DNA from: a virus
DNA: 64,000 bases
Direction: 5' to 3' (one strand)
IMG/VR virus record: IMGVR_UViG_3300021067_000001
Span: 1 to 64,000 of that record
Part shown: in pieces, positions 21,657 to 48,900 of the stretch
Numbering within the stretch: the first letter of the stretch is position 1
How the letters are laid out: every line of letters starts with the position of its first letter
Made by a program: the position numbers and the translations under genes
Notes under the pieces: generated by a model
What the model was told of the DNA's origin: nothing
Databases searched by the model: none
Seen by the model: the letters and a program-made list of their open reading frames with translations, nothing else

Positions 21657-21830
21657 ATGACGCATGAACACACGATTGGATCGCCCGTTGATTTGCAGGC
21701 TTTCCATGGTCACGGCGAGGTAGGCGGTCCGGAACATGACCGTGATTTGCCAAACGCCTGGGAATTGCCGGAGTATGACAATGTAGAGGATTCCTTGGCT
21801 CCCCCGCTGGATGGCGATTTGGAGGACTAA
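21657..21830 (+). CDS. small acidic protein
   Basis: ATG 21657 (the ORF opens at TTG 21645); 57 aa, Asp/Glu-rich. TAATG coupling to the endolysin gene. Confidence 0.4.
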   Translation: MTHEHTIGSPVDLQAFHGHGEVGGPEHDRDLPNAWELPEYDNVEDSLAPPLDGDLED

Positions 21831-22714
21831 TGCCTTTGCTTTTGGTGCAAAAAGGGCATTGTTATAGAACAACCGGGGCTACAGGCACGACCGGTGAACA
21901 GCAATATGCAACGCAGGTTGCAGATGCTTGCGTTCGTTTGCTAGATGGTAAGAACGGTTGGGATGTCAAGGCGGTTCTGGCAGACATTTCTTTGGATTCT
22001 TACCGCGCTGACGCTTTTGCTGCAGTACATTGCGATGGATCTACCAATCCCACCGCGCGGGGATCTTCAGTTGGCTATAAGACTCCTGAAGGACAAAGAC
22101 TTGCGCAAGCCTGGGAGAGAGCTTATGCAGCTCGGGGTTGGCCAATTTTTCGCGATGACAATTACACGGCAGCTTTGAAGAATTACTACGGCGTTAGCAA
22201 TGCAATTTCAGCTGGCTGTCGCCGAGCATTCATCATGGAATGCGGATTCATGACGAATCCTGAAGATCGTCTATTGATGACGGAGCCTGGCGGCGTGGAT
22301 CGCGTCGCCCTGGCGTTGGGCGATGCACTTGGAATCCAAATGGAGGGTGACGTGGCTGAATCGCGGACGGATGTAACGCATGCGTATCGTTGGTGGTCAT
22401 TTCAGAAGGCTGAAGAGCGAATTCCTGCTGCTCATCGAGCTGCTGTTCCAGAGCTTTTCAATCCTCAAGGGCTTGGCGAAGAGTTGCCGATGGTATCGCA
22501 TCTTCTTTCTGAAATGGGAAGAGTTCAGGCCATGGTGCGGATGCAGGAACGCGTTAGCTTTGGTCCTGCGGGAAGAGTGACTGATGAAGGTCGCACAGGT
22601 GAAGTCAATCTACTCGCTCGTAAGTTGAACAAGATGGAAAAGGACATCGAGGAAATCAAGTCAATTCTTCTTGGAAGCGGTGGGCCGCTTCCTGGCGGCA
22701 GAGGGAGCGAGTGA
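21830..22714 (+). CDS. endolysin, N-acetylmuramoyl-L-alanine amidase (Amidase_3-like)
   Basis: AFAAVHCDGS and RRAFIMECGFMTNPEDRLLM fit the His...Glu zinc-amidase pattern. Adjacent to the holin gene. Confidence 0.8.
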   Translation: MPLLLVQKGHCYRTTGATGTTGEQQYATQVADACVRLLDGKNGWDVKAVLADISLDSYRADAFAAVHCDGSTNPTARGSSVGYKTPEGQRLAQAWERAYAARGWPIFRDDNYTAALKNYYGVSNAISAGCRRAFIMECGFMTNPEDRLLMTEPGGVDRVALALGDALGIQMEGDVAESRTDVTHAYRWWSFQKAEERIPAAHRAAVPELFNPQGLGEELPMVSHLLSEMGRVQAMVRMQERVSFGPAGRVTDEGRTGEVNLLARKLNKMEKDIEEIKSILLGSGGPLPGGRGSE

Positions 22715-22715
22715 A

Positions 22716-23195
22716 ATGATAAGCAATAGCGAGCGAATTACAAAGAACTGGGCTGGAAACACTTTTGACAGAGTTTGGCGAACTGGTCTCCAAGTGTTTC
22801 TTGCATATTTGAGTGTCGCTCAACTTTTTCACATGGTTCAATGGATTCCCGCAATTTCCTCTGCACTATTCGCAATGCTTCTTTCCGCGCTTACCAGTTT
22901 GGTTGCGATGCCGAGCTTTGGCGAGGCTTGGTATTTTCAAGTTGCTGAACGGGCAGTCAAGACATTTGCACAGTCTTTGCTGACTTTTATTGGCGCTGCC
23001 GCTGCATTCGATGAAGTTGATTGGAGAATGGGATTTTCCGCTGCAATTGTGGCGACAATCTACAGCGTTGGTACCAGCATCTTGACAACGCGCGTTGGCG
23101 AGCAAATTGCCAAGGGTAACGTTGATCTTACCATTCCAGATTCATATCGTCGTCCTACAGCTGCCAATGGTAGTTCAGGCGGAACGGGATTTTGA
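22716..23195 (+). CDS. holin (r1t/LL-H-like, tentative)
   Basis: ATG 22716. Hydrophobic helices and an ERAVKTFAQSLLTFIG motif. Last gene before a strong terminator. Confidence 0.65.
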   Translation: MISNSERITKNWAGNTFDRVWRTGLQVFLAYLSVAQLFHMVQWIPAISSALFAMLLSALTSLVAMPSFGEAWYFQVAERAVKTFAQSLLTFIGAAAAFDEVDWRMGFSAAIVATIYSVGTSILTTRVGEQIAKGNVDLTIPDSYRRPTAANGSSGGTGF

Positions 23196-23247
23196 AATTC
23201 GCGCATAGGGTAGGATAGAGTTAGCGACCATGCTGGCTCGCAAATTG

Positions 23248-23280
23248 GCCCCAGAGGTATGCAGCAGATACCTCTGGGGC
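23248..23280 (+). terminator. terminator hairpin ending the late (lysis) operon
   Basis: GCCCCAGAGGTAT-gcagcag-ATACCTCTGGGGC gives a 13-bp perfect stem. The downstream U tract is weak (tgattcgtattc). Confidence 0.6.
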
Positions 23281-23389
23281 TGATTCGTATTCGCGCGCTG
23301 GGTGACCTAGACCATCTTCCCTCCCAGGGGAGGTGGTCACCCTCCCTGGTGCAAATGCTACGCATTTGCCAAGGTGCGCGTCTAGGCTA

Positions 23390-23640
23390 CGCTGTACCTT
23401 ATCGCGTATCCGCGCCAGGAACAATCGCGGGGTAAACACATTCGCGCGCAAAAACGCGCGTGTGGCGACGCTGGCGCGATATCGCGCTGGCGCGGCAAAA
23501 CTACGGGCGCATATGCGCGCGCGTAGTATCATCGCGTACTGGCGCGCGAAAACACAATCGCTCGCGTATTTCATGTCTCGCGCGAATCCAGAGGAAGCGC
23601 GCGCGTTCATTTGTTTCTCGCGCGTGGGCGTCACTTTTAC
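23390..23640. repeat. CpG-dense palindrome/iteron-like block
   Basis: Perfect palindromes GCGCGATATCGCGC (23474-23487) and GCGCATATGCGC (23507-23518). CGCGCGcaaaaaCGCGCG at 23443-23460. Recurring CTGGCGCG x3, TCGCGTA x3, TCTCGCGCG x2. About 45 CpG in 240 nt by hand count. Confidence 0.8.
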
Positions 23641-23653
23641 AGATCGTCTTCCA

Positions 23654-23701
23654 CCCCCACCCCCACCCCTACCCCATAACCCCTTCCCCTCCCCCTCCCC
23701 C
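23654..23701. repeat. C-rich tract with eight runs of C4-5 (G-quadruplex/i-motif potential)
   Basis: CCCCCaCCCCCaCCCCtaCCCCataaCCCCttCCCCtCCCCCtCCCCC. The complement carries eight G4-5 runs. Confidence 0.85.
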
Positions 23702-23927
23702 TGCTTCGCGCCCGCGATCCTTATGCGCTTTCGCGCGTCGAGCCGCTAGGCCGAACGGAGTAGCCGCAAGTTACGCCATTCGGGGGATACCGCCGCCCAG
23801 GGGCCGTGGGGTAGCGTTCTCCTCGTTGGGCCGAACGGAGCGGAAGCCCCCGAAAGCCCCTCAAGGCTCCAGGGCCAGCGAGAAGGCGTAAGGCGCGCTC
23901 CAGCCAGGAACCTGCCGAAAGAGAAGC

Positions 23928-23956
23928 TAGACTTTTCCACGCAAGTCGGGTAAGGT
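23928..23956 (+). promoter_or_regulatory. promoter-like element P1 (TAGACT-N17-TAAGGT)
   Basis: cTAGACT, then 17 nt ending in GGG, then TAAGGTAC. The same architecture recurs at 24016 and 35941. Confidence 0.4.
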
Positions 23957-24015
23957 ACGAGTTAGCGCAAGGGTAAGGCCGGCAGAGGCTCCGAGCGCTA
24001 GGGCAAGACCCGGAC

Positions 24016-24044
24016 TAGACGCCCGGGGTAAGGTACGGTAAGGT
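24016..24044 (+). promoter_or_regulatory. promoter-like element P2 (TAGACG-N17-TAAGGT)
   Basis: cTAGACG, then 17 nt, then TAAGGTAC. The spacer contains a tandem copy of GTAAGGTACG (24028-24047). Confidence 0.4.
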
Positions 24045-24049
24045 ACGCG

Positions 24050-24533
24050 GTAGCGGGTCCGACCCCCGCATCGCAGAAGGAGTCGCCACAGCGGCTCGTA
24101 ACGAGGTCACGACAGGGTAACCCCTGAAGGCTGCGGCAGCATCAGCTGCCCGACGCAGCACGCAGGGCTCCGGTGATCACTGTGGATATGTGAATAGAGA
24201 GAGCGCGAGCCATACTCGCCGACGGCCAGTCCAAGATCCTCCGTAGGAGGGGAGACCGCCAGGGAACCGGATTAGCAACCCGGGAAGTCGAGCCGAGCAG
24301 ACGCAGAGGGAACCGGTGCGCACCATCGCAGCCGGAAAACTAGCCAAGAAGGGCGAAAACTCTGCAGGAACCGTAGCGCCGCTGGAAGAGCCGGAGAACC
24401 AGTAATAGGCCGGTAAGTCAGATGCCGCCAAGAGAACCTTAGCTTGTGATCGGCAGCCTACCCCTAGCCATTTAAATCGGCATGGAGTAGGCTGCCCTCC
24501 AGAGGTTAGGGATCAAGAACTTAGGGAGACGAG
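24050..24533 (+). ncRNA. candidate ~480-nt untranslated leader or structured ncRNA (unclassified)
   Basis: No ORF with an RBS. Purine-rich. AGGGAACCGG occurs twice (24261, 24307), with further GGAACC copies. A 10-bp stem GGCAGCCTAC/GTAGGCTGCC spans 24452-24496. Lies downstream of P1/P2. Confidence 0.3.
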
Positions 24534-24701
24534 ATGTTATTTTCGATTATGAACGGAACGTTGAAGGTAGCGGTTCGAGTGTTGCCGCCTAAGGTTGGAG
24601 AGGAAGTTATCGCATTCGTTTTTCCGGAACTTCCTTGGCGCTTCAAGGTAGTTTCGGTGAACGAGAAGGAGCGCACGGCTCACGTGCACCGCATCTACTA
24701 G
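24534..24701 (+). CDS. small hypothetical protein (55 aa)
   Basis: ATG with GGGAGAC RBS. MLFSIMNGTLKVAVRVLPPKVGEEVIAFVFPELPWRFKVVSVNEKERTAHVHRIY. Below the ORF-track cutoff. Confidence 0.5.
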   Translation: MLFSIMNGTLKVAVRVLPPKVGEEVIAFVFPELPWRFKVVSVNEKERTAHVHRIY

Positions 24702-24767
24702 CCGGTCGAAACGCCGCAAGGCGTCGGACGCAAGGCAGCGTCCCTGAAGATGACCTGAGGAGTAGAA

Positions 24768-25208
24768 ATGACCGAGATCACGGCCAACGAGACCACCGCG
24801 ACTGACGCCAAGACCGCGAAGGCCAAGGACTTCACCGCCTACGTCGCCAAGAAGCCGACCAGCCTTCACGAGCACTACGCGGCGTGGATGCTGGAGAAGA
24901 CCGGCCTGGAGCTGAACGTGCAGTCCGATGACGTGACGAAGATCGTGCAGCTGGCCGTCAGCCTCTACCACGACTACCAGGCCAGCCCGGAGAACAAGGC
25001 GCGGCGTGAGGCGGAGCAGGCCAGCAAGCCGGCCAAGACGCCATCCAAGGTCAAGCAGGAGCTGGCCAACAAGGATGCCGAAATCCAGCGCCTGAAGGCT
25101 GAACTGGAGGCTGCGAAGGCGACGCCGGCCAACGGTGCTCCGGCGGCTACGGCTACCGGTGAGGCATCGGCGAAGCCGGTCGGCCGGCGCACCGTCGCCA
25201 AGAAGTGA
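24768..25208 (+). CDS. Ala/Lys/Pro-rich-tailed protein, paralog A (putative nucleoid/DNA-associated)
   Basis: GAGGAG RBS. Conserved core DFTAYVAKKPTSLHEHY..W...KTGLEL...KIVQLAVSLY..YQASPENKARR, then an A/K/E/P low-complexity tail. About 60% identical in the core to 36014..36508. Confidence 0.75.
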   Translation: MTEITANETTATDAKTAKAKDFTAYVAKKPTSLHEHYAAWMLEKTGLELNVQSDDVTKIVQLAVSLYHDYQASPENKARREAEQASKPAKTPSKVKQELANKDAEIQRLKAELEAAKATPANGAPAATATGEASAKPVGRRTVAKK

Positions 25209-25286
25209 CATGATTCTCAAAAAACTGAATAGGAGGCCCGACCCCGAAATGGGGCAGTAAGCCAGAGTCGAATCTGGACGGGCCAC

Positions 25287-25394
25287 GTGAACCTCAAGAC
25301 AAAGGTTACCATCGGGGCTTTTCTCGGTGGCGCCATGATCGGTCTGGCAATTTGGATGATGCTCGGGTGCCCCGACTTCATCCCCGGAATTTGA
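25287..25394 (+). CDS. possible 35-aa membrane peptide
   Basis: GTG start. VNLKTKVTIGAFLGGAMIGLAIWMMLGCPDFIPGI. The RBS is weak and the ORF fills an otherwise empty 200-nt gap. Confidence 0.3.
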   Translation: MNLKTKVTIGAFLGGAMIGLAIWMMLGCPDFIPGI

Positions 25395-25409
25395 GTAAAG
25401 GAAAGCAAA

Positions 25410-25814
25410 ATGCGCAACACCACCATCGCGGACCTGATCCAGGACATCAAGGACATGGACAGCAAGCTCGGCATGGAGCCCCGCCCGGGGCTGAGCAAGC
25501 TGCGCAAGGCGGACCTGCTGGCCGAACTGGAGGACGCCGAGCGGTACCTGGAGCAGCAGCGTAGGCGGCTGGCCCACGTCTTCAACCCCTTCCGGCGACC
25601 GGGTCCGGCCACGGGGCGCATCGTCGAGCGCAAGGCCACCGGACCGACGATCACCGTGGTGGTGCAGGTCGGCGGCAAGCTCGTCTTCGCGGAGGTCATC
25701 GGCACGGTGACTCGACCGTCCGCCGTCAGCAAGAACTTGGTGATGGTCCGCCATCTCACCGACCTCGGCTACCCTCGTGTGACCCTTCACAGTCCAAAGG
25801 AGATCGCTGCATGA
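25410..25814 (+). CDS. hypothetical protein with N-terminal SAP/Rho-N-like helix
   Basis: AAAGGAAAG RBS. LSKLRKADLLAELEDAE motif. High-GC codon usage. Confidence 0.6.
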   Translation: MRNTTIADLIQDIKDMDSKLGMEPRPGLSKLRKADLLAELEDAERYLEQQRRRLAHVFNPFRRPGPATGRIVERKATGPTITVVVQVGGKLVFAEVIGTVTRPSAVSKNLVMVRHLTDLGYPRVTLHSPKEIAA

Positions 25815-26014
25815 CAAACAAATTCTGCCCGCTGAACGAAGTGCCAGATGAGCAGGTTCACATGAACCTGCACCACGGCAGCTGGCCGATCGCTACTGTT
25901 GGCGCCTACACGGGGGAGTTGGTTGTGACCAACTACCGTTGGTGCAGCTGCTCGTCGACTGGCAAGCCCTTCGTGCAAGGGAAGGAAGTGCTAATCTTCC
26001 ACTGGGAAGTCTGA
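25811..26014 (+). CDS. hypothetical protein
   Basis: ATGA coupling; 67 aa. Confidence 0.55.
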   Translation: MTNKFCPLNEVPDEQVHMNLHHGSWPIATVGAYTGELVVTNYRWCSCSSTGKPFVQGKEVLIFHWEV

Positions 26015-26088
26015 TCCAGTTGCGGGGTGCATAGACGGGGCTATGCATCTCCGCTGCTCGTTCAGGATCACATTTGAGAGGAAAGCAC

Positions 26089-26277
26089 ATGGGAAGCAAC
26101 CCCTACCCCAAGGGGACACCGGAGTGGCAGCAATGGATGAACGAGGAGATCGCTCGTCACGACGCCGAGCAGAAGAAGCGTGACGAGGCAATCGACGCGC
26201 AGCTGAAGAAGCAGGCGCAGGAGGCAGCTCGCAAGGCTGCTGAGGAAGAGGCCCGTCGCAAGAAGAACGGCAAGTAA
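26089..26277 (+). CDS. small charged helical protein
   Basis: ATG 26089 with GAGAGGAAAG RBS (the track starts at TTG 26074). K/E/A-rich helix. Confidence 0.55.
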   Translation: MGSNPYPKGTPEWQQWMNEEIARHDAEQKKRDEAIDAQLKKQAQEAARKAAEEEARRKKNGK

Positions 26278-26408
26278 TGGGCAGCAGCGGTAACGGTCAG
26301 GACCCGAGCAGCTACTGCACCACGTGCAAGCAGAGAATCAGGACCACTGACTCTGGCAACGAAGTCGGACACGCTGACTGGTGTGAGTGGAACCCGAAGA
26401 ACTCGTAA
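26277..26408 (+). CDS. 43-aa zinc-ribbon-like protein, paralog 1
   Basis: TAATG coupling. MGSSGNGQDPSSYCTTCKQRIRTTDSGNEVGHADWCEWNPKNS. Shares CxxCKQ.I...D.G.EVGH...C with 31046..31183. Confidence 0.55.
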   Translation: MGSSGNGQDPSSYCTTCKQRIRTTDSGNEVGHADWCEWNPKNS

Positions 26409-26518
26409 TTGAATAGGTAGTCCTGCAACAGCGCGTTCATAGCGCTGCTGGTAAGCGAGCAACGTCGGACCTCGCCAGGACACGCAAGCGGTAAACTTAC
26501 CTCCTGAAAGGGGCCAGG

Positions 26519-26968
26519 ATGACCGAAAGCAAGATTCCGAAGCAGGTGTTGGCTGTTGTGGAGATTTGTGATGCGGATGCGAGCAGCGGCAAGTCACAGT
26601 TCATCGGCAAGCGCGACACGATCCACGGAGAGATGTACATCTTTCAGGATGTGAATCATGGTGATGTCCAGTTCGGCGTGCGAGAGGGTGACTGGACGGT
26701 GTACAGCGGCCTGGACATGCAGCCTCCACCCCGAATCAACGGCATCTACTGGTCCACATATTGGAGCGCTGACGGGGAGCACGAAATCGGCGAAAACTTC
26801 GCTGACGAGACGCAGCGCTCAGTTAAGGCCCTGGAGATGCTTGGCAAGGGCTGGACGGTGGCCTACGGTGATTTCGCCGGGCTGCAGGAGAAGATGATTC
26901 AGGCCGCCAAGAAGCATGACAAGGGTGTCTGGGAACATCTTACCGATGAAAGCATGCCGGGCAAGTAA
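26519..26968 (+). CDS. hypothetical protein
   Basis: 149-aa ORF with an AAAGGGG purine-rich stretch upstream. Confidence 0.6.
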   Translation: MTESKIPKQVLAVVEICDADASSGKSQFIGKRDTIHGEMYIFQDVNHGDVQFGVREGDWTVYSGLDMQPPPRINGIYWSTYWSADGEHEIGENFADETQRSVKALEMLGKGWTVAYGDFAGLQEKMIQAAKKHDKGVWEHLTDESMPGK

Positions 26969-26975
26969 TCTTCAA

Positions 26976-27039
26976 TTGAGTCCGCCAGGAAGGTGGCGCT
27001 CCCCCGCGCGGGAGTCTGGTTCGAATCCAGAGACTCAGC
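26976..27039 (+). ncRNA. tRNA-like element (7-bp acceptor plus canonical T arm; non-canonical other arms; 64 nt)
   Basis: TTGAGTC/GACTCAG acceptor stem and TCTGG-TTCGAAT-CCAGA T arm. The other two arms are CGCCA-GGAAGG-TGGCG and CTCCC-CCGCGC-GGGAG, with 6-nt loops and no linker nucleotides. Confidence 0.4.
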
Positions 27040-33423: not shown

Positions 33424-33671
33424 AGATTCCTCGCAATATCGAGCAGATCGACAAGATGCTTGATGAACTGATGGCCCCCAGATTCACCTACCTGATGGCC
33501 AGGGGTCGGATGGCAGCGTGCCTACGCGTGGGGAAGCAGAGCGATGCTATGCATAGAGGCGCACATGCGGCCATGATCAGTTCTGCCAAGGAGATTCACC
33601 GCATCGTCATGGAGTATCGAGCGCTGCCAATGGCGGCCATTGACGCAAAAGTGGTGCACGAGGAGGAGTGA
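33420..33671 (+). CDS. hypothetical protein
   Basis: GTGA coupling; 83 aa. Confidence 0.5.
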   Translation: MKIPRNIEQIDKMLDELMAPRFTYLMARGRMAACLRVGKQSDAMHRGAHAAMISSAKEIHRIVMEYRALPMAAIDAKVVHEEE

Positions 33672-35560
33672 TGGATATTCGAGTGGAGAGGATCGGCAAT
33701 CGAATTCATCTCAAGAGTCCGTACCGGCCTGATTTGCCAGAAAAATGTAGAAAAATCAACGGATATAGCTGGCTCAAAGAGAAGAAAGTCTGGTCTTTTC
33801 CGCTTGATTTCGGCACCTGTCTGAAGTTGCGGGAGTTGTTTCAACATGAACTCAAGATTGGTCCGGAACTTGGTGCATGGGCGCGCAAAGAAAAGAAGAT
33901 CCATGAAGAGCTTATGGCGCTTACTTCTGAGGTCCGGGCAGATCTTGGGCGTCTTGCCGAGGTTTCCCCCGCGCTCGCCAACGCGATGGCTAATCGTCCG
34001 TACCAACAAATTGGTTCGGCTTGGCTGGCTCGTGCCCGGCAGGCGCTATTGGGTGACCACCCGGGCCTTGGCAAGACTCTGCAAGCAATGGGTGCTATTG
34101 TAGAGGCAGAAATCACCGGCCCAATTTTGGTTTTTGCACCCAAGACGGCCGCCATCATTACATGGACCGAAGAGTTGTCCAAATGGCTGCCGAATGACAT
34201 GGTATACTGCGTCACAGCGCTAAACGGCAAAAAGCGTAATGAGGCATTGTCAAGTGTCATTGCATATTTTCAGGAGTGGGACACACGCGGACCTGCATCA
34301 GATCGCCCAGAGCCCCGCATGTGGATTCTCTGCAATATCGAGATGGCCCGGGTCAAGGTCTTGCAGAAGAAAGAGGCAGAGCTAGAAGGTGCCGAGGTAT
34401 TTGACCCCAAATACCCAGAGATATTCTCGATGCCCTGGTCTGCAGTTATTGTGGATGAGAGCCACAACGGCTTGATTACGCAATATTCAAAGCTGTCTCG
34501 GATGTCACAGACCCGCGCGGGGATGGCTAAATTGCCTCTGCGAGAAGGCAGTTTGAAGATTGCCATGTCAGGTACGCCGATGCGGGGAAAGCCCCAGAAT
34601 CTTTGGGGGACTCTGAATTGGCTTCGACCGGATTTGTACCCTGCCTTTTGGCGATGGGTTGGCAAGTACTTTGACGTATTCGACAATGGGTATGGCGTGA
34701 TCATCGGTGGTTTCAAAGAGGGCATGGAAGAGGAATTCAACCGTGACCTTGAGACCATTATGCTTCGTCGAACGAAGGCAGAGGTTTTGGCAGATCTGCC
34801 GCCGAAAATGTATGCTGGAACCAGGCTGGAGAACCAAAATCCCGCAGCAGCTCCTGGGCATTGGATTCCGATTGAGGGTCCCCAGCTGAAGACATATCGG
34901 GATGTAGGCAAAGATGCCGCCATCAAGCTTCAAGGCGGTACATTAACTCCAAATGGACATCTCGCTTTGGCAACACGACAGAAGCAATTTGCTTCAGCGT
35001 CAGCCAGAATTGATGAAAACGGCGAATACCAGCCTTGCTTACCAAGCAACAAATTCGATTGGCTCGTGCAATTCCTTGCCGAGCGAGGGATTTCAGCTGA
35101 GGATGAATATGGTGATGCCAAAGTCATTGTGGCAACGCAATTTACCAGGCTTGCCAATATGTTCCATCGTGAGCTTGAGTCAATTGGAATAAAAGCACAT
35201 CTTTTGACTGGTGAGGTTCGACCGCAAAAGCGAAAGGAAATCAAGGAGGAGTTTCAGGGGATTGGTGGTCCTCGGGTATTCATTTTGAATATCAAGGCTG
35301 GCGGCGTCTCTCTGACGCTGGATGCGGCAGATGATGTTGTAATTTTGGATGAAACCTGGAACCCTGATGATCAGGAGCAGGTTGAGGATCGCGCGCATCG
35401 TGCGAGCCGCATGCACCAAGTCACAATTCACTATGTGCGATCTATCGGCACAATCGAAGAGGAAATCGCTCTGGATTTGGGTGATCGTGAAGAGGCACAG
35501 AAACAAATTCTTGATGGCAGACGCGGCGTAGATTTCGTCAAGCAACTTTTGGGAGTGTAA
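33668..35560 (+). CDS. SNF2/RAD54-family helicase-like ATPase
   Basis: Motif I GDHPGLGKTLQA, motif II AVIVDESHN, and C-terminal LTLDAADDVVILDETWNPDDQEQVEDRAHRASR (motifs V-VI). Confidence 0.85.
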   Translation: MMDIRVERIGNRIHLKSPYRPDLPEKCRKINGYSWLKEKKVWSFPLDFGTCLKLRELFQHELKIGPELGAWARKEKKIHEELMALTSEVRADLGRLAEVSPALANAMANRPYQQIGSAWLARARQALLGDHPGLGKTLQAMGAIVEAEITGPILVFAPKTAAIITWTEELSKWLPNDMVYCVTALNGKKRNEALSSVIAYFQEWDTRGPASDRPEPRMWILCNIEMARVKVLQKKEAELEGAEVFDPKYPEIFSMPWSAVIVDESHNGLITQYSKLSRMSQTRAGMAKLPLREGSLKIAMSGTPMRGKPQNLWGTLNWLRPDLYPAFWRWVGKYFDVFDNGYGVIIGGFKEGMEEEFNRDLETIMLRRTKAEVLADLPPKMYAGTRLENQNPAAAPGHWIPIEGPQLKTYRDVGKDAAIKLQGGTLTPNGHLALATRQKQFASASARIDENGEYQPCLPSNKFDWLVQFLAERGISAEDEYGDAKVIVATQFTRLANMFHRELESIGIKAHLLTGEVRPQKRKEIKEEFQGIGGPRVFILNIKAGGVSLTLDAADDVVILDETWNPDDQEQVEDRAHRASRMHQVTIHYVRSIGTIEEEIALDLGDREEAQKQILDGRRGVDFVKQLLGV

Positions 35561-35908: not shown

Positions 35909-35940
35909 ATTGCATTGCAATCAAGGCCGGAAAGATCGAC

Positions 35941-35969
35941 TAGCCATGGCCGGTCGAATAGGGTAAGGT
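35941..35969 (+). promoter_or_regulatory. promoter-like element P3 (TAGCCA-N17-TAAGGT)
   Basis: cTAGCCA, then 17 nt ending in GGG, then TAAGGTAA. Lies about 45 nt upstream of ATG 36014. Same architecture as P1/P2. Confidence 0.45.
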
Positions 35970-36013
35970 AATAAAAGTATCAGGCCAGCATGGTCCCAAA
36001 TTCGAGGAGAAGC

Positions 36014-36508
36014 ATGACTACCACCGAAGCCAACGAGGCTGTCGAGACTCCGGCAGAGGTTGTGCCGACGGAGGAGACGCCCAAGGCTGAGAAGTCCAAG
36101 GGCGAGGATTACACCAAGTACGTGGAGAAGGAGCCGACCAACCTTCACGTCCACTACTGGGACTGGATCAAGTCCAAGACGGGCCTGGAGCTTGCGGTGG
36201 CGGATGACGTTGCCGTCAAGATCGTGCAGATCGCTGTGAGTGCGTACCAGAAGTATCAGGCTTCGCCGGAGAACAAGCAGCGTCGTGTCGATGAGGCCCA
36301 GGCGCGCGAGGAGGCTGTCGAGGCAGCCAAGGCAGAAAAGGCCAAGAAGGCCGCAGCGAAGGCTGCGGAGAAGGCCAAGGCTGCTGAGGATGCCAAGACT
36401 GAGGCTGCTGCTGCCGGTGATGGCGAGGCCGCGAAGCGCCAGCCGCCGCCGCGCAAGGGCGCCAAGGCTTCTGCGACCAAGGCCGCTGCAGGCGAAGCTC
36501 CGTTCTGA
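36014..36508 (+). CDS. Ala/Lys-rich-tailed protein, paralog B (putative nucleoid/DNA-associated)
   Basis: GAGGAGAAGC RBS. Core DYTKYVEKEPTNLHVHY..W...KTGLEL...KIVQIAVSAY..YQASPENKQRR. Tail AAKAEKAKKAAAKAAEKAKAAEDAKTEAAAA resembles histone H1 or actinobacterial HU tails. Confidence 0.75.
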   Translation: MTTTEANEAVETPAEVVPTEETPKAEKSKGEDYTKYVEKEPTNLHVHYWDWIKSKTGLELAVADDVAVKIVQIAVSAYQKYQASPENKQRRVDEAQAREEAVEAAKAEKAKKAAAKAAEKAKAAEDAKTEAAAAGDGEAAKRQPPPRKGAKASATKAAAGEAPF

Positions 36509-37059
36509 TCTTCCGGGGGTACCTGGCGAGTTAGGTCACCAGGCTAAGTCGCGTGGACAGCATAGAAGCACGCAGCCCCATCCAAGCAGGGAGGTTCAGG
36601 GGTGACGACCTGAACATGTCAACCGGACCGGACAGTCTATGACTTATCCGGAACGTCACCGCTTGACACTCCCTTTTGTTGGCAGATGTGCTCCGGCACT
36701 ATCTGTCTTTTTACTCAGTGGGGATTGAGCCACACGGTCGGTCTGCCGGGGAAGGGTGGACCGGCCGCTGTGGTGGAGAATGAGTGGCCAAGGGCCATAG
36801 AAATAGAGTATCCTGCGTGTATCGCCCTGATTTTTAAGATACGCAGTGCCGCCTCTCATTCTCCTCCAGAGCGGTTTGTTGTGGTGGATAGTCAAGGTGC
36901 ATAAGTGTACACGGCTGGCTTATGCAGCAAGGTACGGCCAGAGGTGACAGCCTGCGACGTGACTACTGCTGGAACTCACAGCTGGTGAGCGCACGGTAGC
37001 CTGCGATCGTGACTGGTGAACTCTAAACAGTCCGCCTTGACTATCCTTCAGAGCGAAGT
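36509..37059 (+). ncRNA. candidate structured non-coding region (unclassified)
   Basis: 551 nt with no RBS-supported ORF. Stems GTTCAGG/CCTGAAC (36594-36615), 36813-36846 and GCATAAG/CTTATGC (36899-36926). Direct repeat AGCCTGCGA(T)CGTGACT at 36949 and 36998. Confidence 0.25.
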
Positions 37060-37074
37060 GTGGGAGGAGGGTCA

Positions 37075-37329
37075 GTGCCAAATAGTACAGAAAAGAATAG
37101 GCAACGTCGAGAGTTGCGCAAATGGGTCGCTGACCCAAATCACCGAAATAAGGGATACTGGAAGGCTCCATTACCAGAAGAAAAGCACGGACGATTTAGC
37201 ACTTATAGCAATTGGGGCTGCTTGTGCCCGCCTTGTGAAGAGGCAAATGAGGAGCATAGCAGAATTCAACGCAAGAGGGTTGCGAAGATTTTCCGCCGGA
37301 CATTGGATTACATTTCCGGTAATCGCTAA
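37075..37329 (+). CDS. basic protein with GCxCxxC motif (putative Zn/DNA binding)
   Basis: GTG 37075 lies 6 nt after GGGAGGAGGG (the ORF opens at GTG 37060). GRFSTYSNWGCLCPPCEEA motif. Confidence 0.55.
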   Translation: MPNSTEKNRQRRELRKWVADPNHRNKGYWKAPLPEEKHGRFSTYSNWGCLCPPCEEANEEHSRIQRKRVAKIFRRTLDYISGNR

Positions 37330-37368: not shown

Positions 37369-38133
37369 ATGGCTATGCAGGGAAATCCCAAGAATGCAGG
37401 GCGTAGCAAGAAAGCGCTCTGCATTTCCTGTGCACGGAATAAGCACAGACAGTGTGATTTGCACGTGAATGACGGCGCATTCGATGCCGAAGACTTCATC
37501 AACGTTCGCTGTGATTGTTTCTGTGAGGGTCGAATTGGTACAGAATTCGATAGCCTCGTAGCAATGGCCGAACACTACGCCGAGCAAGTGCAGGAATTTC
37601 AGGAGGAGACTCGACAGGTTCGCATGCTTGCCGCGCGGGCTGCCGGTGTGGCTGATGAGGTGATGGAAATCATCAGAGCCCTTGATGCCCGCGCGAGGGA
37701 TGATGAGGGAAACCTGCTAATTTTGGATCACCGTGAGCACGTGGACCGTGTGCTGGACGAGTTCTTCCTGCAGATGAAAACGGTCGCTAACAAGAGCGAG
37801 GCTGTTCTGGCGCTGCTCGCCGAGGACAGCGGATTCACTGTGAAAAATCTTGTTAACAGACTTGTTGAAGTGCAAAGCTCTGATCCCTATGATGCCTGTG
37901 ACGACGATTTTGATGGACCCATCGGCGACGGTCCGCAGGGCGTGCAGAAGCGTGGTCCTGGCGTCCTTCAGGAAGGCCCGTATGCCGGGCGAGTAACTGA
38001 GCCTGGCGGTAGGCAGCGAGACGCCACATCTGACGAGATTGCCATGGTAGAGCAGTATCGGAAGGCGCAAGCTGTCCTCGCCGAACGTGCTAAGCAGCAG
38101 ATCAACGAGGATACAGGGTGGCCCGTTGATTGA
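37369..38133 (+). CDS. hypothetical protein with Cys-rich N-terminus
   Basis: ATGGAGGATGG upstream. CISCARNKHRQCDLH...VRCDCFCEG. 254 aa. Confidence 0.55.
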   Translation: MAMQGNPKNAGRSKKALCISCARNKHRQCDLHVNDGAFDAEDFINVRCDCFCEGRIGTEFDSLVAMAEHYAEQVQEFQEETRQVRMLAARAAGVADEVMEIIRALDARARDDEGNLLILDHREHVDRVLDEFFLQMKTVANKSEAVLALLAEDSGFTVKNLVNRLVEVQSSDPYDACDDDFDGPIGDGPQGVQKRGPGVLQEGPYAGRVTEPGGRQRDATSDEIAMVEQYRKAQAVLAERAKQQINEDTGWPVD

Positions 38134-39118
38134 GCTGCCTCTGCTCCGTACGTCGGAGCGCAAAGACTTTAAGCGCTGCCCGCAACGGTGGTGGTGGGCT
38201 TGGCGCGATGGCCTGCGGCCACAAGGTCCAGATCCCCTAAACCTTTGGTTCGGCACCGGAATTCATTTGGCTTTGGCTAAGTGGTATATTCCTGGCAAGA
38301 CACGCGGAGTTGACCCACGCGAGACATTCGAGGCTTTTGTAAAATCAGAGACTCGAATGATGAAGTTGACGCACAAGGATGAATTCGGCGAAGTTGAGAA
38401 AGACTTCGTTGAAGCCGGTGTCTTGGGCGAAGACATGCTTACCGGTTATCTCAATTTCTATGGATGGGATGAAGCCTGGGAGTTCATTGCTCCCGAACAA
38501 ACATTCTCTGTAGTTCTTCGGCATCCGGTGCACGGCAAGATTGTGCGATATGTCGGGACATTTGATGGCGTATTCATCGACCATGAGCAAGACGGTTCAT
38601 ATCGCTTGCTAGAAACGAAGACTGCCAAGGACATCAGCACAGCGCATCTTTCGCTTGATGATCAAGCCGGTGGTTATTGGGCGATTGCCACAAACACACT
38701 TCGTGCTCAGAATTTAATTCCCTCTGATGCGAACATTGATTACATTGTGTATAATTTTCTTCGCAAAGCCTTGGAGGATGACCGCCCCAAGGACCCGGAA
38801 GGCTTTGCGCTGAACAAAGACGGAACGCGCAGCAAAAGGCAGCCAAAGCCTCGGTTTGAGCGTTTTCCGATTGATAGAAATCCGCGTGAGCGAAATGTGC
38901 AGCTTAAGCGAATTATGGCTGAATCCATGGCTATGCGTCGCTTTGAAACGGGCGAGCAAGAAATGTACAAAACCTCCAGCTGGAATTGTTCATGGGATTG
39001 CCAGTTCTTTCAGATGTGCGAGCTGCACGAGCAAACTCCAGATTGGGAGGAATACCGCAACATGTCGATGCGTCGTCGTGATCCGTACGCAGATCACAGG
39101 AAGAGTGCGGCAGAATGA
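38087..39118 (+). CDS. PD-(D/E)XK nuclease, Cas4/RecB-like exonuclease
   Basis: N-terminal Cys (FKRCPQRWWW). GTFDGVFID...YRLLETKTAK catalytic core. C-terminal CSWDCQFFQMC Fe-S-type cysteines. The start is uncertain (alternative TTG 38126). Confidence 0.75.
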   Translation: MLSSRSTRIQGGPLIELPLLRTSERKDFKRCPQRWWWAWRDGLRPQGPDPLNLWFGTGIHLALAKWYIPGKTRGVDPRETFEAFVKSETRMMKLTHKDEFGEVEKDFVEAGVLGEDMLTGYLNFYGWDEAWEFIAPEQTFSVVLRHPVHGKIVRYVGTFDGVFIDHEQDGSYRLLETKTAKDISTAHLSLDDQAGGYWAIATNTLRAQNLIPSDANIDYIVYNFLRKALEDDRPKDPEGFALNKDGTRSKRQPKPRFERFPIDRNPRERNVQLKRIMAESMAMRRFETGEQEMYKTSSWNCSWDCQFFQMCELHEQTPDWEEYRNMSMRRRDPYADHRKSAAE

Positions 39119-39348
39119 GTGAGGATGCGCAGAAGATTGATGCTGATGTTTGGCTGCAGAACGACGAAATTCTCCCCTCCAGTCCGGGGTGGGTGTATCG
39201 AGATGTAGATGGGACCGACTATCCTGTGGTTGGATGGAAAACAAAGGGGATTTCGCTGGAAGATGAGGGATACATGATGGTCCCAATTCTCGGCGAACCT
39301 CATCCGGGCGGAAAGTTGTTTTTCCAAGGAACGGAGTTCACTCAGTGA
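39115..39348 (+). CDS. hypothetical protein
   Basis: ATGA coupling; 77 aa. Confidence 0.45.
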   Translation: MSEDAQKIDADVWLQNDEILPSSPGWVYRDVDGTDYPVVGWKTKGISLEDEGYMMVPILGEPHPGGKLFFQGTEFTQ

Positions 39349-40256
39349 CAGCGACAGTTGAGCTCCCCTCTGATATCATTGATCTCTCGGATTATGATGA
39401 GAGTATCAATCTGCTGCTTTATGCAGATTCTGGCGTTGGAAAGACAGTTTTCAGCGGCGGCGCCGGCTTGATTCTCGGCGTTGAGAAGGGCACAGTCTCC
39501 GCAAAGCGCCAGGGTAGCAATGCCAAGCTTTGGAAGATCAATTCCTGGAATGATCTGCAGAAGGCTTACTCTTGGCTCAGGAAGAATCCCAAGGTATTCT
39601 CTTGGGTTGCTATTGATTCTGCCACTGAGATGCAGCAGCTTGCGCTGAAATGGATTTTGGAAAAGGAGTACCGAGAGGCTGGCGGCGCACAAAGCAAACG
39701 GGATATTGATATCCCGCAGATTCAGGATCATCAAAAGTGGCAGAACATGTTCAAGAGGTTCATCAAGGGCTTTTGCGATCTGCCAATTAATGTTGTGTTT
39801 ACAGCGCTGCCTCTTCACGTTGAAGATGAAGAGGGAATGGCGCTGGTGCTCCCTGACTTTTCCGGCAAGGGATACCAAATTGCGCAGTGGGTTTGCGCGC
39901 AAATGTCCGTCGTCGGATACATGAAGAAGATCCGCAGGAAGACTGGCGAAGACGGCAAGGGCGAGGCAACCTACAAAGAAGTACGTAGAGTATACTTCCA
40001 GTATAAGGCGCCACACTTCGCCAAAGATCGATATAATGTTCTTGGTCCGTACTGGGACGACCCTACGTTAGCCGCTATCGATGCGCGCATCAAGGGTACG
40101 GATAAGCCGTCGGGGGACCCCGGCAACGTCGCAACGGCGAAGGGAGAGGCCAGCAAAGCCCGTCGTCCGGCCGACGACGCGGTTACCGAGGAGCCGTCTG
40201 ACACAACAGACGAATCGGATGATGTCGAAGACATCAATTTGGATGATGAGGAATAA
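39345..40256 (+). CDS. RecA-fold ATPase, AAA_24/Sak4-like recombination protein
   Basis: Walker A LLLYADSGVGKT. Walker B-like WVAIDSATE. Acidic C-terminal tail. Confidence 0.7.
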   Translation: MTATVELPSDIIDLSDYDESINLLLYADSGVGKTVFSGGAGLILGVEKGTVSAKRQGSNAKLWKINSWNDLQKAYSWLRKNPKVFSWVAIDSATEMQQLALKWILEKEYREAGGAQSKRDIDIPQIQDHQKWQNMFKRFIKGFCDLPINVVFTALPLHVEDEEGMALVLPDFSGKGYQIAQWVCAQMSVVGYMKKIRRKTGEDGKGEATYKEVRRVYFQYKAPHFAKDRYNVLGPYWDDPTLAAIDARIKGTDKPSGDPGNVATAKGEASKARRPADDAVTEEPSDTTDESDDVEDINLDDEE

Positions 40257-40258
40257 AA

Positions 40259-40939
40259 TTGCCTAATATCAAGTTCAAGGTTGGCGCTGATGCCAAGGAC
40301 GCCAAACCGTCCCAGGTTGGCTATGTTGGCTCTCGACCTCCCAAGGGCGTTTATCGAGTTTTGGTGAAGCGCCTGACTCTCACCATCAACAAGAACGGCG
40401 ACTACATGTTGAACGCGGTTCTTGAGATCAATGAACCTGAGAGTTCGCCCAAGGCGCGTTACAACAAGTACGGCTTCTGGTGGAATGGTAACGTCACCGA
40501 CGAAGGGGCTGGCTATATCAACCAGTTCCTTGACGCTATCAGCAACGGTAAGAGCGCGGTGAAGGACGCATTCTATGCGGGTAAACTGCGCACCTTTGAA
40601 GCTCCCAAGAAGGGGCACAAGGCTGCGGTAATGGCAATCGGCCCGCTGCGAATTCAGCAGGAGGGTATGCCCGCTATCGTCAATACCCGACTTGGCAAGC
40701 CCTACAACGGCGAGACGAACCTGGCTGTTGCTGATTGGCTGCTTCCGAGTCAGCTGGAAGAGCTTGAAGCTTCTGGATCACTTGATGGCGATGACGATGT
40801 CGCCGAAGATGATGTTGAGGTTGACATCGATGAGTCCGCTGACGGTGAGTCTGCTGACGGTGCTGCTGATGACGATGTTGCTGATGACGACAGCATCGAG
40901 TACACCGAGGAGGATGAAGACAATGAACCTCCCTTCTGA
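40259..40939 (+). CDS. putative ssDNA-binding protein with acidic C-terminal tail
   Basis: TTG start. Follows the Sak4-like ATPase. The C-terminus ...DDSIEYTEEDEDNEPPF resembles the SSB acidic tip (DDDIPF type). Confidence 0.5.
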   Translation: MPNIKFKVGADAKDAKPSQVGYVGSRPPKGVYRVLVKRLTLTINKNGDYMLNAVLEINEPESSPKARYNKYGFWWNGNVTDEGAGYINQFLDAISNGKSAVKDAFYAGKLRTFEAPKKGHKAAVMAIGPLRIQQEGMPAIVNTRLGKPYNGETNLAVADWLLPSQLEELEASGSLDGDDDVAEDDVEVDIDESADGESADGAADDDVADDDSIEYTEEDEDNEPPF

Positions 40940-45938: not shown

Positions 45939-48900
45939 ATGAAGTACGTTTCCCTGCACCATCATTCTACATTCAGTTACATGGATGGGTATGGGATGCC
46001 AGATGCGCACCATGCCCGCGCGGCAGAGCTTGGCATGTCCGCTTTGGCATTGACGGAGCACGGAAACGTATCGAGCCATGTTAAGCACGAGCAGGCAGGT
46101 GCCAAGTATGGCGTCAAGCCAATATACGGATGCGAACTATATACCGCATCAGAAAGGACAAGATCAAAGTGGCACCTGACCTGCATCGCAGAGACGCAAG
46201 AGGGCTATCAGAATCTGAACCAGCTGGTGAGCAAAGCTTGGGCAGAAGGCTTCTACCAGTGGCCGACGGTCTTTGGGTACATGCTCAACGAACATCGTCA
46301 AGGCCTGATTCTGACCTCTGGCTGCGCCGATTCGCTCCTCAGCTGCACGCTGATGGGCGGCAAGAGCAACGGCCCGAAGCGGGAGACGATCACCAGCCAG
46401 GATCTGGACAATGCGGAGAAGGTGATCCGCAAGTTCCAGGAGGTGATGGGGAAGGACAACTACTTTCTGGAAGTTCAGCAGTTCCCTGGGCTTGCCCGCA
46501 CCTGCACACTAAATCCTGCGTTTGCGGAGTTGAGTATGCGGACAGGTGCGCCTTTGGTGGCCACATCTGACTGCCACTACCCTCTCCCGACTGATAATGA
46601 GATGCAGAAGATTCTACATGCGGCTGGACGTGGAACTGGGACGGTTGCGGCGGCTGAGGCGGGATGGGAATATGACATCCTGCTGACGCCGCCGACCTCG
46701 GACAAGGCCATTTATGAGAACTTGCGAGGAACCGGTCTAACCCGATTGCAGGCGCTTGAAGCAATTGATAACACAGCACTTATTGCATCTAGGTGTAACG
46801 TTCTTCTGCCAAAGAATGAATTGCTTCGCTTTCCATTGCCACAAGGCTTTGATACGCCAAAGGATTTGATTTGGCAGAAGTTGCGAGAAGGCTGGACGTA
46901 CCGCTGGGCACGTAATCCGCATATGCGCGCCAACAAAAAAATGTACGTTGAAAAGCTCAACTATGAGATGTCTGTGGTTGAACAGAAGGATGGATATCTG
47001 GACTACTTCTTGATGGTTTCAGATGCTGTCATTTTCGCTAAGGATTCAGGCATCGCTGTCGGCCCCGCGCGGGGGTCTGCGGCAGCTAGCTTGATTCTGT
47101 ATTTGTTGCGGGTAACCGAGGTTGACCCGTGTCAATTTCCCACAATGGTTTTCGAGAGGTTCATTGATGTTGCGCGTACAGATATGCCGGACATCGACCT
47201 CGACTTTGCTGATGACCGGCGAGATGAAGTCAGGCAACACCTCGTGCGAATTTACGGCAACGATCGAGTCGCAAACATTGGTAACTTTGTCCGATATCGG
47301 GGCAAGAATTCGATCGTTGACGTCGCACGCGTTTACACGATTCCAAAGTATGCGGCGGACCAGGTCAAAGACCTCATCATCGAACGGTCGGGCGGTGACT
47401 CGCGAATCAACGACAGTCTCGCAGACACCTTCGCGACCTTTGATGTTGCTCGCAAAATCTTAGATCAATTCCCTGATCTGAGCCGAGCAATTCAGCTCGA
47501 AGGCAATATGCGCGGCATGTCAGTGCACGCTGCAGGATTGGTTATTAGCAACCGCCCGATCACGGATACCTGTGCGATGTATACCAGAACTGTTGCTGGC
47601 GAGAGCAAGTCAGTTCTTGCATATGACAAAAAGGATGCCGAATACCTCGGCATGCTGAAGATGGACTTCCTTGGGCTTGCCGAGATGTCGGCGATTGACA
47701 TCGCGCTTCGTATGGTCGGTATGACACTTGATGAGCTTTACCAGGTTCCGCTAGACGATGCCGAGACTATCCAAGGCTTCCGGGAGACCGACGTCGTCGG
47801 CATTTTCCAATTCAAGGGCCGAGCCACCCGTCTGATTTGTCAGGATGTGGTACCCGATCATTTCATGCATCTTGCGGATATTAACGCTCTGGCTCGACCA
47901 GGGCCGCTGTTCTCCGGGATGACAGCACAGTATGTCGAGGTGAAGCACGGGCGAGCTGAGCCAGACCATTTGCATCCGCTAGTTTGGAAGTACACGCAGC
48001 ACACGTACGGACAAATCATCTACCAAGAGCAAGTGCTCAACATCATCCGTGAGATTGGCGGCTTCCCGGTTGCCAAGATTGGTGATATTCGCAAGATCAT
48101 TTCGCAGAAGCTTGGCGAGGCTTCATTCAATGCAATGAAAGAAACCTTCGTTGATGGAGCGAAGCGGCTGCACAATATTGATGCAGATTTGGCTGATCGC
48201 ATTTGGAAATTCATGGTGACATCAGCCACCTACTCATTCAACGTTGCGCACTGCATTAGCTACTCTATGCTGGCATTCTGGTCTATGTACCTGAAGCGCA
48301 AGCATCCGCTAGCATTTTATTCCGCATCGCTTCGCAAGACTTCCAAAGAAAATTGGCCCAAGCTACTCCGGGATGCCCGAAAGAAGAACATTGAAATTCT
48401 TCCGCCTAGCATGACGGAATCGGATTACAGTTGGTCTCCAGACCCAAGCGGCCACGCCGTCCGCGCGGGATTTGTACAGGTTGATGGCGTTGGCGATATC
48501 ACTGCAAAGAAGATTATCGATGCTCGTGCAGCCGACCCTCTCGGATACACTGAGTGGTCAGATCTGATGAAAATCTCAGGGATCGGGCCAAAGAAGATGG
48601 AGCGAATTCGTGAGTTTTGCGAATCCGATGATCCTTTCAATTTGGATCTTGTGGGTAAGACTCTGGGTATCTATCGGGAGGCCCTGGAGGCTGGAGAAGG
48701 TGATTGGGCTGGTCTACCTGTCCCTTCTCATACATCTGATGAGATTCCTCGCGATGCCATAAATCTGCCAGTAATCTGGATTGGCATTGTTGCCAAGAAG
48801 GAATACAAAGATCTCATTGAGGATGAAAGAGCGCGATCTGGCGATACCGTTGAAGAGATTTTGGCAAGGGTTAAGGACCCGGATTTGCGAAAATCTTGTA

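Follow-up and report, generated by a model that had tools for sequence, protein, structure and literature searches.

Introduction

The locus considered here raises a functional question: what do two related small proteins, each carrying a low-complexity tail, do for the phage that encodes them? Both genes lie in a stretch of 64,000 nucleotides (hereafter the window, whose numbering is used unless another contig is named) from IMG/VR virus record IMGVR_UViG_3300021067_000001, covering positions 1 to 64,000 of that record and most of an actinobacteriophage-like genome of ~66.7 kb. Paralog 1 (24768..25208, plus strand (+); 146 aa) is also referred to as class A or type 1, and paralog 2 (36014..36508, +; 164 aa) as class B or type 2. 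In a first-pass annotation they had been put forward as a possible pair of nucleoid-associated or DNA-coating proteins. Our analysis points, tentatively, to another answer, namely that the paralogs may serve phage DNA metabolism as abundant modular adaptors and that the C-terminal tip of class B could dock in the manner of the tips of single-stranded DNA-binding proteins (SSB); we favour this as a quite possible but far from secure reading.

Results

Two ancient paralogs of a large phage protein family

The two genes are the product of a real and ancient duplication. Both open reading frames (ORFs) exist as the first-pass annotation described them, and BLASTP aligns their products over 91 aa at 51% identity (E 1e-26). 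The shared core, previously estimated by hand at about 60 aa and 60% identity, comprises 64 aa of which 61% are identical, the corresponding DNA being 73-74% identical. It spans residues 20-83 of paralog 1 (24825..25016, +) and residues 30-93 of paralog 2 (36101..36292, +), and a hidden Markov model of the core (hmmsearch) matches exactly these two ORFs of the window, with E values of 9e-33 and 1.8e-30, respectively, and no third copy. A GAGGAG ribosome-binding site precedes both genes, 8 nt 5' of the ATG in the case of paralog 1, and the start of paralog 2 (MTTTE) is kept in relatives together with its ribosome-binding site.

The family to which these proteins belong is large, phage-only and uncharacterised, and its fold is an orphan. 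Searches of Pfam and NCBIfam with both proteins returned no family match, and the PHROG profiles that they match, PHROG 20596 for class A (phrog_20596, 1.4e-15) and PHROG 34140 for class B (phrog_34140, 6e-15), are both labelled 'unknown function', which bears out the earlier impression that the core is not a characterised family. Some 30 close homologs are found on phage contigs of 65-67.5 kb, where both types occur together on the same contigs. With a profile of the core, ~510 clusters (at 50% identity) were collected from 1.84 billion representatives at E up to 1e-3, nearly all members being 110-230 aa long and carrying the domain N-terminally. When 185,579 species genomes were scanned twice for family patterns, the first scan had zero matches and the second had one, on a 4.6-kb contig of a metagenome-assembled genome; the peptide patterns had to match exactly, and the scans therefore give a lower bound on cellular presence. 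The taxonomic spread, which the first-pass annotation had left to be checked, is accordingly that of a phage-restricted family nearly absent from the cellular genomes scanned.

The core is modelled by AlphaFold with confidence, as pLDDT exceeds 90 throughout the core of paralog 1 in the full-length model and reaches 96.4 for the core of paralog 2 modelled alone. The modelled domain is small and all-helical, with helices at core residues 7-10, 15-28, 36-55 and 57-68. A Foldseek search of the PDB with the full-length and core-only models, a comparison that had also been suggested, revealed no fold relative (best E 1.3 and 2.4; best query-normalised TM-score 0.35), and profile and sequence searches of PDB sequences gave nothing credible. 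The Foldseek viral library returned uncharacterised actinophage relatives only.

The position of a copy predicts its C-terminal peptide

Class B sits in a conserved gene order. Its upstream neighbour is a SNF2-family helicase (33668..35560, +) and its downstream neighbours are a PD-(D/E)XK (Cas4-like) exonuclease (38087..39118, +) and a Sak4-like or RecA-like ATPase (AAA_24; 39345..40256, +). When window proteins were compared by tblastn with 35 loci, the order SNF2 helicase, family gene, exonuclease and Sak4 was found in more than 20 of them, at 27-50% identity. This order is also that of the isolated Streptomyces phage ShakeNBake, with helicase gp70, family protein gp68, Cas4 family exonuclease gp66 and RecA-like recombinase gp64. 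This phage encodes three family paralogs, all annotated as hypothetical, of which gp80 and gp90 fall in PHROG 20596 and gp68 in PHROG 34140.

Beyond the common N-terminal domain the two proteins differ. Paralog 1 continues with a predicted helix or coiled coil (residues 94-118), a disordered stretch and the basic C-terminal peptide KPVGRRTVAKK (25173..25205, +), kept as ..RRT..KK in copies that are not adjacent to SNF2, including ShakeNBake gp80; its orthologs end in ATGEAS.KPVGRRTAAKK. Paralog 2 continues with an Ala/Lys/Glu spacer, the basic patch KRQPPPRKGAK and the C-terminal tip GEAPF, whose last four residues, EAPF-COOH (36494..36505, +), are invariant among close orthologs. Type 2 orthologs invariably end in ..APF, so that a disordered linker followed by a Pro-Phe tip, as in SSB, is present, with an acidity weaker than the canonical one.

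Over the loci compared, the position of a copy predicts its C-terminal tip. Among complete copies located up to 1.2 kb downstream of SNF2 (n=21), eleven end in [AVP]PF and ten in an acidic peptide of the DDFDEDD type (DDFDEDDLG and close variants). None of the ~30 copies found elsewhere bears a PF or acidic tip; these carry at their end either a basic ..RRT(RRT)..KK peptide or an extra domain with Cys residues (..Y[DN]AKPCC..LD). Aromatic ends dominate among 177 retrieved sequences, mostly family representatives (PF 89, AF 17, PY 7, DF 5, PW 3), and the typical family tip is [D/E/A]-[D/E/A]-A-P-F after an Arg-rich patch.

The window class A protein, with its KPVGRRTVAKK peptide, groups with ShakeNBake gp80 (ARRTRRTAATKK), and class B with gp68. 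The paralog classes are thus common to the window group and ShakeNBake, and the duplication is therefore older than the split between the ~50%-GC group and the high-GC Streptomyces phages. A third class, represented by ShakeNBake gp90 (in L034) and by the first copies of loci L002-L011, carries an extra C-terminal domain of ~70 aa ending in ..NYMAYDAKPCCPALD and is absent from the window phage. An apparent fusion to a SNF2-family protein in L023 (276-3077, a 933-aa ORF) was set aside and not used as evidence, because relatives begin the family gene at an internal Met; it is probably a read-through in a high-GC genome.

Tail charge and codon usage

Both proteins end in tails rich in Ala, Lys, Glu and Pro, as had been reported, the class B tail being 41% Ala. 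Glu and Asp are interspersed in them and the tails are weakly basic, nearly neutral, with a net charge of +7 over 63 aa in class A and +3 over 71 aa in class B, whose whole protein has an isoelectric point of 5.9. The cores of both proteins are slightly acidic. Given these low net charges, the proposed likeness to histone H1 and HU tails holds for the Ala/Lys-rich composition only. Over the family, tails have a median net charge of +5 and many members contain Arg-rich patches; AT-hook-like GRP or RGR motifs occur in 23 of 176 tails (e.g., P0150, P0126 and P0164), including canonical examples (KRGRGRPRK in P0150, for instance). Both the GRP core with basic flanks that characterises an AT hook and RGR are absent from the two window proteins.

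The GC content of both genes, overall and at third codon positions (GC3), far exceeds that of surrounding genes, in agreement with the first reading of the sequence. GC3 is 0.88 in class A and 0.75 in class B, compared with 0.40-0.60 for most window genes; the gene that follows class A likewise has 0.88. The excess recurs in five related contigs and in ShakeNBake, where paralogs reach 0.75-0.94 against 0.4-0.75 for their neighbours, and is therefore a stable property of both genes. This bias may reflect selection for high expression.

Promoter-like motifs precede both genes

The 5' flanks had also been regarded as duplicated. A short motif stands behind this claim, since ACTAGCC-N(0-6)-GGTCGAA has exactly two occurrences in the window (24697 and 35939), whereas shuffled sequence leads one to expect 0. 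The likeness goes no further: MAFFT and short-word BLAST found no wider homology between the flanks, with words of 10 nt at most, and an extended flank duplication was rejected on these grounds. Moreover, the proximal copy upstream of paralog 1, ACTAGCCGGTCGAA (24697..24710, +), shares nucleotides with the stop codon of a 55-aa ORF (24534-24701) and lacks conservation: two relatives do not have it upstream of the orthologous gene. The other copy (35939-35958) falls in a promoter-like block that is kept in relatives (TTGCATTG, GATCGACTAGCCATGGC, AATAGGGTAAGGTA and CAGGCCAGCATGGTC).

A different element, CTAG[AC]C-N17-TAAGGT, is shared by the regions upstream of both genes and is found exactly three times in 64 kb, compared with 0.01 occurrences expected. 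Two sites of the form CTAGAC-N17-TAAGGT make up a tandem pair 720-810 nt before the class A gene: one at 23927..23956 (+) and the other at 24015..24046 (+), the latter with a doubled GGTAAGGTAC that is seen in all four relatives examined. The third site, CTAGCC-N17-(GG)GTAAGGT (35940..35969, +), lies 45 nt upstream of paralog 2 and contains ACTAGCC...GGTCGAA. Motif positions before both paralogs are conserved in relatives, including the doubled GGTAAGGTACGGTAAGGTAC, and each paralog is the first sizeable ORF downstream of its motifs. A sigma-70 consensus scan did not call these sites, which may act as promoters. Between the third site and the start of paralog 2 there is a conserved block, CAGGCCAGCATGGTC (35981..35995, +), presumably in the 5' untranslated region of the gene. 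An exact 12-mer within this block, GCCAGCATGGTC (35984-35995, +), is conserved upstream of the gene in L030 and L032 and occurs once more, inverted, at 23226-23237 (-), ~30 nt past the holin stop.

A structured RNA upstream of class A

Between the tandem promoter-like motifs and paralog 1 lies a conserved structured RNA of ~390 nt (24044..24430, +), either a leader or a separate non-coding RNA. Counterparts in L029 (383-783), L031 (1943-2329), L035 (1454-1880) and L036 (1462-1896) align with the window sequence in long invariant blocks (AGAGAGAGCGCGA, AACTAGCC..GAAGGGCGAAAACTC and TAGCGCCGC) separated by variable helices. Of the 65 pairs predicted by RNAalifold, 21 show compensatory double changes. 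In the alignment 93.7% of cells are paired, compared with 32-44% when partners are slid, the 21 covarying pairs compare with 1-4 in the slid controls, and none of 500 shuffles reaches the observed score; these statistics come from only five sequences and from a structure obtained on the very alignment that was scored. A search of Rfam, with the whole window at the gathering threshold and both intergenic gaps flanking the paralogs at E up to 1, gave one tRNA and two chance-level matches, and no family to which this RNA could be assigned. A covariance model of the 3' domain of the RNA, run against 30 sources, found only the five training sequences, all in the window phage group.

In relatives the class A start codon is located ~110-125 nt past the 3' end of this RNA, and the window has an extra insertion of ~235 nt that holds the 55-aa ORF mentioned above. 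This ORF (24534-24701, +; GC3 0.62) and its ~235 nt were seen, among the relatives examined, in the window phage and in an identical ENA contig (ERZ27257325 k141_711483) only.

Genome setting and further features

The left side of the window holds structural and lysis genes, the latter including an Amidase_3 lysin (21830-22714) and an r1t-type holin (22671-23195). Paralog 1 opens the right arm after these lysis genes. The right arm, all on one strand, contains the replication and recombination genes: the SNF2 helicase, PD-(D/E)XK exonuclease and Sak4-like ATPase described above, a DnaE-like polymerase (45939-49106) and a primase (55609-58422). The polymerase shares 59% identity with its counterpart in Nocardia phage P3.1 and 56% with the enzymes of several mycobacteriophages, e.g., PLot and PBI1. 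A megablast search of isolated phages with positions 24000-27000 gave no match, and hence no close isolated phage.

Each gene had been said to abut a GC-rich region free of ORFs. This is true of gap 1 (23196-24533), which has 61% GC; gap 2, downstream of paralog 2, has 53% GC and holds a conserved 89-aa ORF (37060-37329, +). The product of that ORF is 62% identical to its counterpart in L030, 56% in L032 and 37% in L008, and weakly matches a PHROG of the HNH endonuclease family (E 2.8e-4). The upstream part of gap 1 contains dense short palindromes with CGCG (23390-23640) followed by a C-rich pyrimidine tract (23650-23705; CCACCCCCACCCCCACCCCTACCCC...), and a similar C-tract is present in L035 at 1095-1119; this part of the gap might function as an origin or in packaging. 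Downstream of paralog 2 there are two similar long hairpins (TGTGGTGGA...TCCTCCAGAGCG), at 36765-36874 and 36875-37057 (+). L030 and L032 have one conserved copy of the hairpin, and compensating changes distinguish the inner stems of the window pair. Elsewhere, a T-arm-like sequence, GAGTCTGGTTCGAATCCA (27012-27029), resembles the T-arms of two called tRNAs (27983 and 31212), and ARAGORN made no tRNA call at that place.

Discussion

Possible modular adaptors in phage DNA metabolism

The conserved gene order around class B gives good support to a role in DNA transactions, within a DNA-metabolism context. As to what the proteins do there, the class-specific conservation of the C-terminal peptides looks like peptide docking rather than generic charge-driven coating. 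Each protein follows a modular plan in which a helical N-terminal domain of ~65 aa is followed by a helical or disordered Ala/Lys/Glu/Pro spacer, a short basic patch and a class-specific C-terminal peptide. Class B forms a fixed part of a module (SNF2 helicase, X, Cas4-like exonuclease, Sak4 recombinase, Asp-rich SSB-like protein) and may act, in abundance, as an adaptor during recombination-dependent replication or repair. Its ...EAPF tip, or the acidic ...DDFDEDDLG in other phages, would dock into the pocket of a partner as SSB tips do, and the basic or AT-hook patch, the N-terminal domain or both could keep the protein on DNA or on another protein of the module. In class A, a predicted coiled coil and the basic RRT..KK tip are found instead; since class A has the common N-terminal domain, it presumably shares the target, or else the oligomerisation partner, of class B. 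The tandem promoter-like motifs and the structured leader RNA have class A as the first sizeable ORF after them. High expression of the paralogs, peptide docking, the identity of the partners and nucleic-acid binding are all points that we infer.

SSB provides the precedent for such docking. The E. coli protein ends in DFDDDIPF, a sequence that the acidic DDFDEDDLG of the family resembles. In general, SSB consists of a core, a disordered linker and a tip (PMC7145534). Its gene usually adjoins sak4, and in HK620 the protein needs its final six residues (NDYPPF) to bind and stimulate Sak4 (Hutinet et al., 2018; PMC5928155). Class B likewise has a folded N-terminal domain, a low-complexity linker and, at its extreme C-terminus, a P-F peptide (GEAPF, as compared with DDDIPF in E. 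coli and NDYPPF in HK620), and its gene shares a block with a Sak4 recombinase, an enzyme known to depend on the SSB tip (PMC5928155). It is because of this Sak4-SSB precedent, and because GEAPF and the DDFDEDDLG of the Streptomyces group resemble such tips, that we propose an adaptor with a docking tip; as a specific mechanism, SSB-like tip docking by a modular adaptor is plausible. The family departs from SSB in its core, small and all-helical where SSB has an oligonucleotide-binding (OB) fold for single-stranded DNA, in its often non-acidic tips, and in that the window phage appears to possess a separate Asp-rich protein with an EPPF tip.

That protein, of 226 aa, is encoded directly after Sak4 (40259..40939, +) and may be the SSB-like partner of Sak4, judging by its position and by a long acidic tail that ends in EEDEDNEPPF. 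ShakeNBake gp63, its positional counterpart, ends in GDDEPPF. If it is a phage SSB-like protein, as we suspect, the idea that the family is a non-OB substitute for a missing SSB is weakened, and we have dropped it. A phmmer search with three approximate SSB sequences gave no match in the window, and the best PHROG of the Asp-rich protein is labelled 'methyltransferase', probably wrongly. A further parallel comes from T7, in which the C-terminal tails of gp2.5 and gp4 are acidic, terminate in Phe and dock on one common partner surface. In the window phage, too, several replisome proteins would bear aromatic tips (...EAPF in class B and ...NEPPF in the Asp-rich protein); the T7 proteins have no sequence or fold relationship to the family.

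Several observations weigh against the adaptor proposal. The APF tips, many of them KAPF, AAPF or GAPF, fall short of canonical SSB tips in acidity, and in ShakeNBake the family tip (DDFDEDDLG) and the tip of the putative SSB (DDEPPF) are mismatched. The N-terminal domain has no relative detectable by sequence or fold searches that would hint at its target, and class A is tied to the recombination module solely via this common domain. In addition, neither Pfam nor the PDB gave a match to the putative SSB. Homologs of this protein in Gordonia and Mycobacterium phages bear the labels 'hypothetical' or 'Asp-rich', and one homolog is called 'methyltransferase'.

Other readings of the paralogs

The proteins may alternatively be histone-like, their low-complexity tails binding, compacting or shielding phage or host DNA non-specifically. 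Codon bias suggests abundance, and DNA association is plausible for the family at large in view of its Arg-rich tails (median net charge +5), the canonical or near-canonical AT-hooks (RGRP, GRP) in 23 of 176 members and a precomputed Pfam match of one member to the H1-like HC2 family (PF07382). The window proteins, however, lack the GRP hook, their tails carry only +7 and +3, the pI of class B is 5.9 and their cores are slightly acidic, while class-specific terminal peptides and the fixed gene order suggest that the proteins have particular partners. Our Pfam search of 148 members gave zero matches, histone, H1, HU and Lsr2 domains included. Histone H1 and the C-terminal extension of actinobacterial HU (HupB) resemble the family in Ala/Lys-rich composition; the family tails are interspersed with Glu and Asp, and neither the long, strongly basic Lys-rich tail of H1/H5 nor a winged helix is present (the model is all-helical, and Foldseek rows containing H1 or H5 had E of at least 6.9), nor is a DNABII fold of the HU/IHF or HupB type, for which Pfam and PDB sequence and fold searches gave no match. 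The conserved terminal peptides of the family, in turn, have no counterpart in H1 or HU. Lsr2-type silencers, too, are small proteins in which a flexible linker joins an N-terminal domain to an Arg/Gly-rich DNA-hook region. Yet Lsr2 is chromosomal in Actinobacteria and the family is nearly absent from cellular genomes; the C-terminal Lsr2 DNA-binding domain is missing, with no Pfam Lsr2 match in 148 members, and the window proteins have no RGR minor-groove hook. Lsr2-type silencers are reported to be common in actinobacteriophages (PMC8612146), and the family is common there as well. Of the initial proposal of a nucleoid-associated or DNA-coating pair, a role in DNA transactions survives, given the SNF2/exonuclease/Sak4 gene order and the Arg-rich and AT-hook tails of many members; H1/HU-like coating is not supported. 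The histone-like interpretation is weakly supported, the H1/HU likeness of the window proteins being compositional only, and we regard it as unlikely.

Two other explanations were considered. The paralogs could be early host-takeover or transcription factors. Their N-terminal domain would then bind RNA polymerase, a sigma factor or a nucleoid protein (e.g., Lsr2) of the host, and the tails would modulate this target. Consistent with this, each is the first sizeable ORF after a dedicated promoter-like motif, class A opens the right arm and the family is phage-only; furthermore, host Lsr2 is known to matter for mycobacteriophage replication zones (PMC10066036). The tight synteny of class B with SNF2, exonuclease and Sak4 over very divergent phages is, however, more typical of a component of DNA metabolism, and Foldseek detected no helix-turn-helix or sigma-binding fold; we regard this explanation as quite improbable. 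Lower still, and in our opinion very improbable, stands the notion that the proteins bind or chaperone the adjacent structured RNAs. A covarying RNA directly upstream of class A, the conserved hairpins downstream of class B and a basic RRT..KK tail that could bind RNA speak for it; the 3' domain of that RNA was not found in more distant phages that keep all paralog classes, and the Foldseek searches detected no known RNA-binding fold.

The adaptor proposal can be extended to a more elaborate picture, which we consider doubtful. The orphan three-helix domain, possibly hetero-oligomerising between paralogs, might act as a hub displaying class-specific docking peptides (APF or acidic, RRT..KK, or the Cys-containing domain) and thereby assemble the SNF2 helicase, the Cas4-like nuclease and Sak4 on phage DNA, with class A co-regulated with the new structured leader RNA of ~390 nt.

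Taken together, these findings define a large, phage-restricted and probably highly expressed family that resides in the recombination/replication block of many actinobacteriophages, isolated Streptomyces phages included, and yet has no annotation, Pfam model or structural relative. The phage group also gains two candidate regulatory elements, a phage-specific promoter-like motif and a covarying structured RNA. If an SSB-like tip is indeed displayed on a non-OB scaffold, docking by SSB tips would be a transferable module that phages have grafted onto other proteins, and the family would provide a handle on the organisation of Sak4-type recombination modules.

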